Below are positions 8,852 to 36,983 of a DNA stretch of 64,000 nt, in pieces; the stretch's first letter is position 1, and each line of letters starts with the position of its first letter. Made by a program: the position numbers and the translations under genes. Under the pieces are notes generated by a model that was given only the letters and a program-made list of their open reading frames with translations, was not told where the DNA came from and did not search any database. The stretch is from an uncultured Gammaproteobacteria bacterium (GTDB lineage: Bacteria > Patescibacteriota > Microgenomatia > CAYFQP01), in NCBI GenBank assembly GCA_964345375.1, contig CAYFQP010000003.1, positions 8,875 through 72,874 on the forward strand. The letters run 5' to 3'.

Positions 8852-9583
8852 CTACGCCCTATGCACTAACTCTTTTAGAGTCTCCGCATTCTCCACTGCG
8901 TGGCCCAAGGCATCATTATTAAAGTAGGCATAAACATCTAAGTCTCTTTTTAGCCATCTATTTATCTTCCTCCCCCATTTTTTTAATTCTTTATCTGAAT
9001 AATTTGAGGTATAAAGACGAGCTCGGCCATGAAATCTTAAATAGACAAAATCAGCCGTCACCTCCTCTGTCATCGGCCAGTCAGGAAAATCCTGAAAAAC
9101 AATGGCGGAATTATATTTTTTAAGAATCTTAAATATCTCTTTGTCTAACCAACTTTCCTGCCTGAATTCAAAAGCGTGCCTGAATGAAGAAGGTAAAATC
9201 TTTAGGAAATCTTCCAAACGCTCAGGATTTACCTGCATCCGAGGTGGCAGCTGCCAAAGAACAACATCTCTGTCATTTCTGATCGCGTCCGCCGCTTCAA
9301 AGAATCTTCCTACTGCTTCTTGACAGTCTTTCAACCTCTTAATATGGGTAATATAGCGACTGCCTTTAATAGAAAAAGTGAAGCTTTTGCCAGCTGTTTT
9401 TCTCCATTTCTCAAAAGTCTCTTTCTTGGGCAAGCGATAAAAAGAAACATTTAATTCAACTGTATCGAACTGTTTAGTATAGTATCTAAACCAGTCTTTT
9501 TGAGACAAGCCTTTAGGATAAAAAACTCCCTTTCCCCAATGAGGATAGGAAAAGCCAGAAGTGCCAATATAAACTCGTTTCAT
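8852..9583 (-). CDS. DUF72 family protein (YecE-like)
   Basis: IGTSGFSYPHW...FYP N-terminal signature. Confidence 0.8.
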   Translation of the reverse strand: MKRVYIGTSGFSYPHWGKGVFYPKGLSQKDWFRYYTKQFDTVELNVSFYRLPKKETFEKWRKTAGKSFTFSIKGSRYITHIKRLKDCQEAVGRFFEAADAIRNDRDVVLWQLPPRMQVNPERLEDFLKILPSSFRHAFEFRQESWLDKEIFKILKKYNSAIVFQDFPDWPMTEEVTADFVYLRFHGRARLYTSNYSDKELKKWGRKINRWLKRDLDVYAYFNNDALGHAVENAETLKELVHRA

Positions 9584-32189: not shown

Positions 32190-32270
32190 GATTTTGGAAG
32201 ACAATTAAATCAGCCCCATTGCTTTTTTTGCTTCTCGAAGTGTTTTCTTAGCAATCTTAGAGTAATATTC
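32190..32270 (-). repeat. diverged (~85% identity) duplicate of the trpS 3' end plus 3' flank (gene remnant)
   Basis: Encodes EYYSKIAKKTLREAKKAMGLI* vs trpS C-terminus YCSKIAKETLREAKKAMGLI*; matches 33278-33360. Confidence 0.7.
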
Positions 32271-32721
32271 AGCCCAAAATTTCTAGAGTCGCATCTAAAA
32301 ATTTCTTCGCTCCCTCGACTGCTTGTTTAGCTCCTTTCGCTGAATAGATACTTTCGTAATTAGCCGCTTCTCTTAAGCCCATCGCTTCGTCGAAATAATC
32401 GAGCATCCCAGAATCAAGTAATTTTTCTTTGACAAACAACTCTTTAATCGCTACCCCCAGACAATAATGGCCTCTTTCGCGATAGCCCCGTGAGTAAAGA
32501 AGAGCCCTAGCTGAATGGAAAAGAGAATAATAACCGGCGATGGTTGCATATTTAAAGTTTTTACTTCTCAAGAAATTGTTAGCGTTTTTTAAATCCCCTT
32601 TAGCAGCTTTAAGTTCAACCCTCATTTTATTCCTGGCCTTGGGAAACTTGATAATTTTTCTATTTTTCAAGCAATTTTCAAAATCTTTACTCATGTTGCT
32701 CCTCCCAAAGCACTTTACCAT
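32269..32721 (-). CDS. HEPN domain protein (toxin-like component of HEPN-MNT pair)
   Basis: R-x4-H HEPN motif (RERGHY), helical 150-aa protein overlapping MNT gene. Confidence 0.7.
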   Translation of the reverse strand: MVKCFGRSNMSKDFENCLKNRKIIKFPKARNKMRVELKAAKGDLKNANNFLRSKNFKYATIAGYYSLFHSARALLYSRGYRERGHYCLGVAIKELFVKEKLLDSGMLDYFDEAMGLREAANYESIYSAKGAKQAVEGAKKFLDATLEILG

Positions 32722-33232
32722 TGTTTATCTCTTCGTAAAAGACTGGATCTTTCTTCTTAAGTTCCATTAACTCTAGAAAGTTTTTAATCACTGGTTGAAT
32801 TTTTTGACCTATTTTGCTTTCTTTAATCATCTGCTGGACTTGTCTTTTCTCATTAGTGAGAATAAAGAGATCGAAGTCACTCTCGGCTGAATCTTTTCCC
32901 TGAGCGGCACTACCAAAAAGAATAACCTTCTGACTAACTTTCTGAAGTTTAGTAAGGAGAGGTCTTAACAATTCAATGGTGCGGACAACCTTCATTTGAG
33001 AAACCACGGGATCGTTTTGATCTAAAAAATAAACACTCAGGTTCCCCACCTTCACTTTCTCTATCTCCCTGTCAGCCACCTTTTTTTCTAGTATCTGATG
33101 ACAGGTAGAGATACTCGCACCTGAAGTTTGAGCAATTTGAGAAAGATACATCTTTTCACCCCCCACATTGTCTAAAAGAACATTCATTATCTTTTTTTCT
33201 GACCGCATGTTTCTTTTCATAGTTACATCCAC
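32687..33232 (-). CDS. minimal nucleotidyltransferase (MNT) with N-terminal wHTH (antitoxin-like partner of HEPN)
   Basis: LFGSAAQGKDSAESDFDLFILT (GS-x9-DxD), N-terminal HTH-like extension. Confidence 0.75.
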   Translation of the reverse strand: MDVTMKRNMRSEKKIMNVLLDNVGGEKMYLSQIAQTSGASISTCHQILEKKVADREIEKVKVGNLSVYFLDQNDPVVSQMKVVRTIELLRPLLTKLQKVSQKVILFGSAAQGKDSAESDFDLFILTNEKRQVQQMIKESKIGQKIQPVIKNFLELMELKKKDPVFYEEINNGKVLWEEQHE

Positions 33233-33295: not shown

Positions 33296-34279
33296 TTAAA
33301 TCAGCCCCATCGCTTTTTTGGCTTCTCGAAGAGTTTCTTTAGCGATCTTTGAACAGTACTTTCTCCCCTCCTCTAAAATTCTATCGACTTCTTGAGGGTG
33401 CTCTTCATAGTATTTTCCTCTCTTCTGAATTGGCTCTAATTCTTTATAAATCGCCTGGGCTAATTTCTCTTTGAGTTCAGAATACTTTATCCCTTTACCT
33501 AGATATTGCTTTTCGTAATCTTCCCGTCTTTCTTTGCTAATAAAAAGATCGACTAAAAGAAGCAAATTAGCCACCCCGCCTTCTTTGGGAATACTCTTTC
33601 CATGGCCAACATCAGTCGGCACCTTAGCTAGTTTTTCTTTGATGGTTTTCAAATCATCAGTTAAAAGAATATAGCTTCCTTTAACTGTTTTACTCATTTT
33701 GCCTTTTCCAGTTAAAGAAGGAATATTCTCTCCTTTAGTAGCAAATCTTTTAGTTTCAGGAAAAACAGGTTTAAACATCCGATTAAATCTTCGAGCGATT
33801 TCTCTAGTTACCTCAAGATGGGGCTCTTGGTCTATACCTACTGGCACTAATTCGGCTTTATAGATAAGAATGTCAGCCGCCATTAAGACTGGATAATATA
33901 AAAGGCCTAAATTAATGTATTTAGGAAATTGAGTTTTTCTATCTTTGTAAGTAGGTAATTGTTCTAACCGAGAAACCGGATAAATGGTACTGAAAAGATA
34001 GGCAAGTTCTAAATGTTCAGGGACTTGAGACTGGATCATTAAATGACATTTTTTGGGGTCTAAACCAGCGGCTAAATAATCCAAGACTACCTCCCGAATA
34101 TCTTGTTGAAGAGTCTTGGGTTCATAAGGAGTGGTAATCCCATGAAGATCGACCACGCCATAAATACAATCTAAATCCTTTCTTTCCTGAAGAGCAATAT
34201 AGCCTTTAACTCCACCTAAATAATTGCCGAGATGAAGTCGGCCTGTTGGTCTTGAACCTGAATAAACTCGTTTTTTCAT
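33296..34279 (-). CDS. trpS: tryptophan--tRNA ligase
   Basis: HLGNY (HIGH) and KMSKT class I motifs; ATG 4 nt after tRNA-Trp 3' end. Confidence 0.92.
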   Translation of the reverse strand: MKKRVYSGSRPTGRLHLGNYLGGVKGYIALQERKDLDCIYGVVDLHGITTPYEPKTLQQDIREVVLDYLAAGLDPKKCHLMIQSQVPEHLELAYLFSTIYPVSRLEQLPTYKDRKTQFPKYINLGLLYYPVLMAADILIYKAELVPVGIDQEPHLEVTREIARRFNRMFKPVFPETKRFATKGENIPSLTGKGKMSKTVKGSYILLTDDLKTIKEKLAKVPTDVGHGKSIPKEGGVANLLLLVDLFISKERREDYEKQYLGKGIKYSELKEKLAQAIYKELEPIQKRGKYYEEHPQEVDRILEEGRKYCSKIAKETLREAKKAMGLI

Positions 34280-34283
34280 TCTG

Positions 34284-34354
34284 CAGGGGCGGAGGGAATC
34301 GAACCCCCGATTAGTGTTTTGGAGACACTCGGTATACCACTTACCTACGCCCCT
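34284..34354 (-). tRNA. tRNA-Trp (anticodon CCA)
   Basis: Cloverleaf: acceptor AGGGGCG/CGCCCCT, anticodon loop CUCCAAA, T-loop TTCGATT; CCA not encoded. Confidence 0.8.
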
Positions 34355-34362
34355 TTGCCACC

Positions 34363-34388
34363 AAAAAACTCGCCCGCTCGGCGAGTTT
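34363..34388 (-). terminator. intrinsic terminator (attenuator terminator) upstream of tRNA-Trp
   Basis: Minus strand CUCGCCgagcgGGCGAG followed by U6 (plus-strand A363-368). Confidence 0.65.
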
Positions 34389-34514
34389 AACCAATCACAA
34401 AAACAAACTCCCGGCGGTTACCTGCCGTTAAGTTTGCGCCACCAAGCCTGAACCGTTGCTTTGATTTTAGCTATCATTAGCCTTATTTTAATACTTTCAA
34501 ATTAAACTTGTCAA
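34389..34514 (-). promoter_or_regulatory. promoter (TTGACA 34514-34509) plus leader with alternative antiterminator/terminator structures controlling tRNA-Trp-trpS
   Basis: TTGACA then A/T-rich -10 (TATTAA/TAAAAT); hairpin 34412-34427; segment 34405-34413 can pair with 34379-34388 (terminator 5' arm). Confidence 0.5.
34418..34477 (-). CDS. putative 19-aa leader peptide with tandem Trp codons (MIAKIKATVQAWWRKLNGR)
   Basis: ATG 34477, UGG UGG at 34444-34439, UAA at 34420-34418 inside hairpin; leaderless start right after -10. Confidence 0.5.
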   Translation of the reverse strand: MIAKIKATVQAWWRKLNGR

Positions 34515-34516
34515 GT

Positions 34517-34587
34517 GGCAGGGGTGGGAGTTGAACCCACGACCACTTGTTTATGAATCAAGCGCTCTACCGCTGAGCTACCCTGCC
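34517..34587 (-). tRNA. tRNA-Met elongator type (anticodon CAT; could alternatively be tRNA-Ile2 with lysidine)
   Basis: Cloverleaf with D-loop AGCGGTA, anticodon loop TTCATAA, fully paired G1-C72. Confidence 0.7.
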
Positions 34588-34660
34588 TGGTTGCGGGGCC
34601 AGGAGTTGAACCTGGTCTGTGAGATTATGAGCCTCACGTGCTACCCTACACTACCCCGCT
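34588..34660 (-). tRNA. initiator tRNA-fMet (anticodon CAT)
   Basis: Anticodon loop CUCAUAA; 3' end CCCCGCAACCA identical to E. coli tRNAfMet; position 1 (A) unpaired with A72. Confidence 0.65.
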
Positions 34661-36881: not shown

Positions 36882-36911
36882 CGATCAATTCCAATATAAG
36901 TTATAAGAAAG

Positions 36912-36983
36912 TGGGCCCGGAAGGAGTCGAACCTTCGTCTGGACTTTATAAGAATCCCATTCTCACCGTTGAACTACGGGCCC
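36912..36983 (-). tRNA. tRNA-Ile with anticodon UAU
   Basis: Acceptor GGGCCCG/CGGGCCC, anticodon stem GGATT/AGTCC, loop CTTATAA (34-36 = TAT), T-loop TTCGACT. Confidence 0.65.

Follow-up and report, generated by a model that had tools for sequence, protein, structure and literature searches.

How is a tRNA gene expressed when an intrinsic terminator ends only a few nucleotides (nt) in front of it? The question is raised by a locus in a 64,000-nt stretch of DNA (here called the window; positions 8,875 to 72,874 of contig CAYFQP010000003.1, GenBank assembly GCA_964345375.1), deposited as coming from an uncultured Gammaproteobacteria bacterium. On its minus strand, between a tRNA-Met gene and a tRNA-Trp gene that is followed by trpS, the window carries a promoter-like sequence, a 19-codon open reading frame (ORF) with two adjacent tryptophan codons (WW), and a set of competing RNA hairpins that ends in a terminator. 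An earlier reading, made from the letters alone (the sequence-only reading), proposed that this is a trp-style attenuator. Folding and comparison with related loci support that proposal, and the element is most probably, at roughly 80%, a ribosome-mediated transcription attenuator of the trp type that would gate a tRNA-Trp–trpS unit.

Anatomy of the Leader

All features of the element lie on the minus strand. A -35 hexamer, TTGACA (34509–34514), directly follows the last nucleotide of the upstream tRNA-Met gene and is separated by an 18-nt spacer from the -10 hexamer TAAAAT (34485–34490). Together they match the sigma-70 consensus at 11 of 12 positions, in agreement with the TTGACA and A/T-rich -10 that had been proposed. 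The leader ORF (34418–34477) opens with an ATG at 34477, runs for 19 codons to a UAA stop at 34420–34418, and encodes MIAKIKATVQAWWRKLNGR. Since the ATG is only 7 nt past the -10 hexamer, the leader mRNA is predicted to be leaderless; a Shine-Dalgarno sequence is absent. Codons 12 and 13 are the tandem UGG UGG (34439–34444), the proposed stall site. ORF, codon pair and stop are all where the sequence-only reading had placed them.

The pairing regions are packed tightly around the end of this ORF. Region 1 (34421–34437), the 5′ arm of hairpin 1:2, begins 1 nt after the second UGG and overlaps codons 14–19. The UAA is the loop of this hairpin, and region 2 (34403–34417) begins at the next nucleotide; it can pair either with region 1, as a pause or anti-antiterminator hairpin, or with region 3, as an antiterminator. 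Region 3 (34375–34389) comprises the 5′ arm and loop of an intrinsic terminator (34363–34388), AAACUCGCC-gagcg-GGCGAGUUU followed by six U residues (34368–34363). The terminator scan thus recovered the core that had been pointed out before, CUCGCC-gagcg-GGCGAG plus U6 at 34385–34363. The whole leader is about 115 nt long.

The first downstream gene is tRNA-Trp (34283–34354; anticodon CCA, with the CCA end not encoded), and trpS, the gene for tryptophan--tRNA ligase (33296–34279), comes after it. The latter was identified by TIGR00233 (292.7 bits; cut-off 176.75), and its ATG lies 3 nt beyond the 3′ end of the tRNA. The gene order that had been reported is therefore right, but the gap between the U-run and the tRNA is 8 nt and not 9.

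Three Competing Helices

What would decide between termination and read-through? Unconstrained, the leader of the window folds into two hairpins (z = -2.1). Helix 1:2 (34437–34403), with the composition GCAAACUU..CGGC.GG/CC.GCCG.GAGUUUGU, has an energy of -15.5 kcal/mol (z = -2.9 against shuffled sequences); the hairpin CGGCAG-GUAA-CCGCCG seen previously is present, but is only its inner part. The terminator helix 3:4 (34388–34366) has an energy of -14.3 kcal/mol (z = -3.6). Between them stands the antiterminator 2:3 (34416–34375; -15.0 kcal/mol, z = -2.45), which occupies the entire 5′ arm and loop of the terminator. An antiterminator had been predicted with 9 base pairs (bp) and one bulge; it exists, but it has 13 bp and two 1-nt bulges, CGCCGGGAGUUUG pairing with UAAACUC-g-CCG-a-GCG. 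The three helices are mutually exclusive, as the earlier proposal demanded. They are also nearly isoenergetic, so the terminator is not unopposed.

The same balance is found in the relatives described below. When no part of the RNA is masked, each of the 18 distinct leaders adopts 1:2 together with the terminator, and this is also the RNAalifold consensus. To mimic a stalled ribosome, the RNA was ended before region 4, the 3′ arm of the terminator, and was masked from the first UGG onwards over 12, 15 or 18 nt, footprints assumed from E. coli ribosomes. Helix 2:3 (12–14 bp, -15 to -22 kcal/mol) then becomes the minimum-energy fold in 17 of 18 leaders under a 12–15-nt mask and in every leader under an 18-nt mask. 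Six of the leaders, masked in this way, keep it as the global minimum-energy fold even with region 4 included.

A Model of Attenuation

These alternatives suggest how the element could work. Transcription would start at the ATG at 34477 or within 0–3 nt of it, and a ribosome would follow close behind RNA polymerase on the 19-codon ORF. When charged tRNA-Trp is plentiful, the ribosome would pass UGG-UGG, reach the UAA and cover region 2; region 3 would then pair with region 4, and the polymerase would terminate at the U6, 8 nt before tRNA-Trp. When charged tRNA-Trp is scarce, the ribosome would stall on UGG-UGG and cover region 1. Region 2, left free, would pair with region 3 on its emergence, thereby blocking the terminator and allowing read-through into tRNA-Trp and trpS. 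A leader that is not translated, for example one transcribed by read-through from the upstream tRNA-Met genes, would be expected to form 1:2 and 3:4 and to terminate. The net effect would be a negative feedback on charged tRNA-Trp that maintains its supply, tRNA and synthetase both rising when the decoding of UGG slows. With the tRNA gene in first place, the feedback from UGG decoding to the synthesis of tRNA-Trp and its synthetase would be direct.

Conservation among Related Loci

Is this arrangement a product of chance, or has it been maintained by selection? The single sequence offers modest evidence over chance; the strong evidence is conservation. A scan with TrpS, using one genome per species, found 12 close relatives at 61–85% identity, the next matches being at 34–39%, together with one partial match of 58% that is labelled Patescibacteria. 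A metagenome scan with the same protein added 80 loci (56–85% identity; related loci are given L numbers here). The same element is present in 23 further loci, where TrpS is 69–85% identical; counting the window, there are 24 loci, with 19 distinct sequences among them.

The signals for transcription and translation are retained throughout. TTGACA occurs in 17 of the 18 leaders that have upstream sequence, with TCGACA in L048 (L035 has no upstream sequence). In the relatives, the spacer between the hexamers is 17–18 nt, the -10 hexamer is TAAAAT or TAGAAT in every case, and the ATG follows 7–10 nt on, again lacking a Shine-Dalgarno sequence. ORF length is 19 codons everywhere but in L081 (18 codons), the UAA always falls in the 1:2 loop, and the position of the two Trp codons is fixed, UGG UGG being invariant in the 19 distinct leaders. 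All the terminators of the relatives carry at least six U residues. The leader frame is open in 17 of 17 aligned leaders, while the other two frames are stopped in 17 and 15 of the 17. Two loci have a third Trp codon outside the pair (MWKRF... in L051, 259–318; MLKRFW... in L103, 1305–1364).

Conservation follows the proposed functional parts. Column entropy is 0.0 for UGGUGG, 0.08 for region 4, 0.30 for region 2, 0.37 for region 3 and 0.60 for region 1; outside the stems, it reaches 0.90 in codons 2–11 and, in the spacer that separates region 2 from region 3, 1.29. Because positions without a proposed function are near saturation, the conservation of the stems, the Trp codons, the ATG and the UAA is regarded as selective. 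Pairing was counted on an alignment of 17 leaders based on a covariance model; a MAFFT alignment was set aside as it misplaced a 1-nt gap in the row of the window. For 1:2 and 3:4 together, 97.2% of cells are paired, compared with 32–51% when the partners are slid against each other (95.7% for 1:2 and 99.3% for the terminator in the relatives). For the antiterminator the figure is 91.0% in 17 relatives, compared with 32–48% for slid partners.

Particular loci illustrate the same point. In L081, region 2 has changed from CCGCCGG to UUGUUGG; region 1 is now CCAGCAG and region 3 is CCAACAA, a perfect 7-bp match. In L034 and L035, insertions of 55–165 nt in the 1:2 loop leave every helix intact. 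They consist of a repeat of about 55 nt (GAACCTTGCCTTCGGCAAGAACCTTGTTTCTC...GAAAAAA) situated exactly in the loop, with one copy in L035 (72–125) and three tandem copies in L034 (482–632), each of which can form a hairpin of its own. The covariance model of the 17 leaders finds exactly one copy of the element in the 64-kb window, and a search of 394 kb of related loci found no copy before any gene other than tRNA-Trp. The weak matches (E of 0.04–0.9) are A+T-rich noise, except for a disrupted copy in L034.

tRNA-Trp as the Constant Partner

Which gene does the element serve? In all 24 loci, tRNA-Trp lies downstream of it. In 21 loci the tRNA begins 5–17 nt after the U-run; L046 and L032 have longer gaps, of 36 and 65 nt. 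A gap of 5–17 nt leaves no room for a promoter, so in most loci the tRNA must be read through the terminator. The association with trpS is looser: the trpS ATG follows tRNA-Trp within 13 nt in 19 loci (the window and 18 others), but a sigma-70 family gene separates the two in L032 and a small ORF does so in L046. In L049/L050 and L079, tRNA-Trp is followed by a T-box leader, and in L049/L050 a BtpA-family gene precedes trpS. The constant partner of the element is the tRNA-Trp gene and not trpS. Of the joint control of tRNA-Trp and TrpRS that had been suggested, the first half would be common to all loci, but trpS is detached in L032, L046, L049/L050 and L079. One trpS was seen in the window and at each related locus, a count made over the loci rather than over whole genomes.

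A different kind of insertion is found in L034, where a 220-amino-acid ORF (763–1425) with its own TTGACA/TAAAAT promoter lies between the WW leader and tRNA-Trp. Related ORFs end at the 5′ end of tRNA-Trp in L044, L053, L061 and L097–L099. The possibility that this ORF encodes a homing endonuclease was dropped, as its only Pfam match is to HTH_23, below threshold. A separate observation concerns the start of trpS: its ATG stands 1–12 nt past the tRNA 3′ end at the junction in the window and in 18 related loci. Processing of that end would yield a trpS mRNA that is nearly leaderless and too short at its 5′ end to hold a Shine-Dalgarno sequence. Relatives without the tRNA have AGGAGG before trpS.

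T-Boxes at the Same Positions

In sister lineages, T-box leaders with a UGG specifier occupy the same positions, some of them directly before tRNA-Trp. In L042 (270–545; identical in L043), a T-box with AAAGGUGGCAACGCG and a terminator ends 12 nt before tRNA-Trp. In other loci the T-box comes after tRNA-Trp and before the next gene or trpS: L053 (492–750), L061 (1142–1400), L087 (522–780), L049 (438–640) and L079 (1103–1304). The last two match RF00230 with 64.3 and 56.9 bits (E = 1e-11 and 8e-10), scores that lie below the gathering score of 93. In L092 (1208–1426), a T-box with the specifier hairpin GAUCCGG-AGGGUUGGA-ACCGGGG stands before trpS (46.3 bits, E = 2.8e-9). The WW attenuator and a T-box are present in series within one locus in L049/L050 and L079. 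Since T-boxes with a UGG specifier hold these positions in the sister lineages, antitermination at poor charging of tRNA-Trp appears to be the logic that is selected here.

The two types of leader also have a stem in common. The terminator of the nearest T-boxes, AAACUCGCC-cuuucaaaaa-GGCGAGUUUUUU (L049, 625–655; L042, 505–540), contains the same stem as the WW attenuator. In 500 kb of DNA from this clade, the pattern CUCGCC-N3-14-GGCGAG occurs only in WW attenuators (20) and in these T-boxes (7). It may be speculated from these sequences that attenuator and T-box share, or have exchanged, an expression platform. A more specific proposal is that the element is primarily an autoregulator of the tRNA-Trp gene that arose in place from a T-box, with a leaderless WW mini-ORF replacing the tRNA-binding domain and the CCGC..GAG / CUCGCC / GGCGAG-U run platform being kept; this is possible, but is put forward with considerable doubt. 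If it were true, the two main bacterial sensors of tRNA charging would be exchangeable on one expression platform, and ultra-small Patescibacteria would set their tRNA supply by coupled transcription and translation.

A second type of leader, about 200 nt long, is also found directly before tRNA-Trp (L008, 100–298; L010, 205–399; L011, 2195–2377; L083, 800–1008; L087, 170–449). Its 5′ half is T-box-like, with a hairpin loop GGUUGGA that is complementary to the anticodon loop of tRNA-Trp. The 3′ half differs (CAAGGUGUGUC...GGAGCACUU) and leads into one or two terminators. This second type has no GGUGGNACC motif and no match in Rfam.

Weighing the Explanations

Several observations limit the case for an attenuator or weigh against it. 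Promoter-like sites (18, with 7.8 expected) and terminator-like sites (11, with 4.4 expected) are abundant in the A+T-rich DNA of the window, which lowers their value as single-sequence evidence. The codon positions of the leader have entropies of 0.998, 0.678 and 1.011, with no strong third-position bias, and pairwise comparison of leader codons gives 684 non-synonymous and 200 synonymous differences. As the third-position bias is weak, the case for coding is drawn from frame, start and stop rather than from conservation of the peptide; weak constraint on the peptide is usual for leader peptides. The sequence-only reading had looked to orthologous upstream regions for the WW peptide and for compensatory changes in the stems: the Trp codons, ORF, stop and hairpins are kept across the 24 loci, but compensatory changes are few. 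The covariation score of 1:2 plus 3:4 was matched in 3 of 500 shuffles, with double changes at two pairs only. That of the antiterminator was matched in 270 of 500, which is not significant, and its one double change (C-G to U-A) is carried by two sequences, one of them L004. Statistical covariation is weak because the stems hardly vary; support is therefore taken from the pairing potential that has been kept and from the changes in L081 and L004, and covariation is not used as proof.

Other points concern the ribosome and the breadth of the sample. With UGG in its A site, a ribosome covers about 12–15 nt, and the inner CCGG:CCGG of 1:2 could persist; L004 retains this inner pairing when 12–15 nt are masked. 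The loci are close kin, and their conservation could partly reflect a short divergence time, although the saturation of the spacer and of the N-terminal codons argues against this. The gathering threshold of the Rfam Trp_leader family, 41 bits, is not reached by the element of the window or by its relatives. Finally, what was computed is the layout of the leader, its three competing helices and how well these are conserved; the transcription start, translation of the ORF, leaderless initiation, stalling, termination and the regulatory outcome are predicted from this.

Could the leader sense tRNA-Trp as RNA, with no need of translation? An untranslated relative of the T-box would bind tRNA-Trp by pairing UGG with the CCA anticodon, and the tRNA would choose the fold. 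The invariance of UGGUGG is compatible with such a sensor, as are the T-box-type leaders with a UGG specifier at these positions in sister lineages and a CUCGCC/GGCGAG stem common to T-boxes and element and found nowhere else in the 500 kb of clade DNA. However, the leader, at about 115 nt, lacks Stem I, the acceptor-binding UGGN bulge and the GGUGGNACC motif, and the window gave no T-box match even at E ≤ 10 on 160 nt. Moreover, a fixed distance from the -10 hexamer to the ATG, a frame that stays open through 10 codons of high variability and a UAA that is invariant and in frame would all go unexplained, and direct sensing by RNA is thus improbable. Nor does the neighbourhood of the tRNA-Met genes provide a better answer. 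The window has two such genes on the same strand upstream (the nearer at 34587–34515), with no other terminator between them and the element, so that the hairpin could be their terminator, the ORF and the alternative pairings being fortuitous and the downstream genes being reached by leaky read-through. The abundance of promoter-like and terminator-like sites in this DNA lends this some plausibility. Yet the terminator is preceded by a near-consensus promoter. In addition, five loci (L001, L003, L031, L036 and L081) have their tRNA-Met genes on the opposite strand and four (L049, L051, L079 and L103) lack them, and in these loci promoter, ORF, hairpins and the linkage to tRNA-Trp are intact. 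A simple tRNA-Met terminator was ruled out on these grounds, and a terminator with leaky read-through is very unlikely.

Two further explanations accept that the ORF is translated. In one, the nascent WW peptide would sense free tryptophan, as TnaC does, and halt the ribosome at the stop codon or close to it, independently of tRNA charging. The C-terminal half of the peptide (WWRKLTGK) is indeed well conserved and the position of the stop is fixed, but this conservation coincides with RNA region 1, which explains it. The features that mark TnaC, namely the spacing of Trp12, Asp16 and Pro24 and a dependence on Rho, are missing, and the terminator of the element is of the intrinsic type. A ribosome arrested at the UAA would also lead to the same outcome as normal termination and add nothing to it, and a TnaC-like sensor is accordingly given very little credence. 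In the other, the terminated transcript of about 115 nt or the 19-residue peptide would be the product of an independent small gene that acts in trans, any control in cis being incidental. Trans functions are documented for small RNAs and leader peptides derived from attenuators (PMC6614838, PMC7298713), and action in trans has been described for rnTrpL/peTrpL in Sinorhizobium. Such a function would be compatible with attenuation. The N-terminal sequence of the peptide is nevertheless poorly conserved, and the linkage to tRNA-Trp in 24 of 24 loci and the three-helix design favour a role in cis; an independent small gene is extremely unlikely.

Relation to Known Systems

The trp-type attenuator favoured here has clear counterparts. 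The model of the Rfam family Trp_leader (RF00513) can be aligned along the entire element, keeping UGGUGGCGC, hairpin and terminator in register, and scores 30.8 bits in the window and 22–27.3 bits in seven relatives; at the gathering threshold, the whole window contains four tRNAs and no other Rfam family. As in the trpL attenuator of E. coli, there is a short ORF with tandem UGG UGG followed by CGC, a stop between regions 1 and 2, and competing 1:2, 2:3 and 3:4 helices with a Rho-independent terminator. In contrast to trpL, which acts on tryptophan biosynthesis, the element of the window would control a tRNA gene together with the gene of an aminoacyl-tRNA synthetase, and its ORF is leaderless where that of E. 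coli is led by a Shine-Dalgarno sequence. The lineages are unrelated, and the resemblance is probably convergent.

Attenuation of trpS had been considered a new arrangement, which does not hold in view of precedents in Streptomyces. For trpS and leuS, upstream attenuators of the classical kind were predicted there and likened to that of pheST (PMC1262725). In S. lividans, RNA sequencing is reported to show two leader peptides that are leaderless, TrpL1 ahead of trpE and TrpL2 ahead of trpS; unlike the element of the window, TrpL2 has a single Trp and no clear U-run (PMC8079986). These Streptomyces units (trpS2/trpRS1 and TrpL2, with leuS, alaS and thrS as further cases) resemble the window in having a ribosome-mediated attenuator before trpS and a leaderless peptide, but contain no tRNA gene and belong to a different phylum. 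The attenuated trpS of Streptomyces is an auxiliary, indolmycin-resistant paralogue. The E. coli pheST attenuator, the gamma-proteobacterial precedent given in PMC1262725, is likewise a leader-peptide attenuator of an aminoacyl-tRNA synthetase that responds to charging of the cognate tRNA; it differs in its amino acid, in a leader with a Shine-Dalgarno sequence and in having no tRNA gene in the unit.

The T-box (RF00230) of trpS resembles the element in its antitermination at low charged tRNA-Trp, its positions and, in the closest relatives, its CUCGCC/GGCGAG stem. However, a T-box recognises uncharged tRNA by direct contact with Stem I and the UGGN bulge, both of which are lacking in the window element, where there is a mini-ORF. 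Regulation of the TRAP type, as in the Bacillus trp and trpG leaders and taken as 9–11 (G/U)AG triplets spaced 2–3 nt apart, has no counterpart in the leader, which contains four GAG/UAG triplets with a longest correctly spaced chain of 1. The literature consulted yielded no attenuator or T-box in Patescibacteria or the candidate phyla radiation (CPR) and no report of a T-box that gates a tRNA gene. Nor did it yield a leader-peptide attenuator before a tRNA gene, within a coverage that left out the old reports on E. coli tRNA-Phe genes. Attenuator-like leaders are said to have been described in the 1980s before two of those genes, pheU and pheV.

Leader-peptide attenuation is thus already known, and for trpS it has been predicted or observed in Streptomyces. 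Three things are new here: the Patescibacteria/CPR lineage, the cognate tRNA gene as the first regulated gene, and the alternation or serial arrangement with T-boxes within one clade, an apparent exchange. The presence of an attenuator, a T-box or both at the same locus within one clade, with a shared terminator stem, amounts to a natural experiment in the exchange of RNA sensors. Members of the CPR have very small genomes and almost no characterised regulation, and the element would imply leaderless initiation and tight coupling of transcription and translation in this group.

Lineage and Other Features of the Window

From which organism does the window come? Its closest metagenome-assembled genomes (L001–L008, L010 and L011) are for the most part labelled 'uncultured Gammaproteobacteria bacterium', and the same cluster, at 61–85% TrpS identity, holds sequences labelled Minisyncoccia or Patescibacteria. 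One relative is a complete chromosome of 615 kb. The gene content of the window, with a stand-alone 5′-3′ exonuclease, a class II ribonucleotide reductase and tRNA-Ile(UAU), fits an ultra-small bacterium. We infer that the window originates from Patescibacteria/CPR, and the Gammaproteobacteria label of the closest genomes is probably wrong.

Three other features of the window may be mentioned. The tRNA-Ile gene (36911–36983, minus strand) has the anticodon UAU, which is an uncommon bacterial way of reading AUA. The two adjacent tRNAs upstream of the element (34515–34659), annotated as tRNA-Met, both have the anticodon CAU and could be initiator, elongator or tRNA-Ile2. Directly downstream of trpS, an overlapping pair of ORFs (32269–33232, minus strand) combines a nucleotidyltransferase match (MntA-like, below threshold in NCBIfam) with a HEPN domain (Pfam), and looks like a toxin-antitoxin module of the HepT/MntA type.

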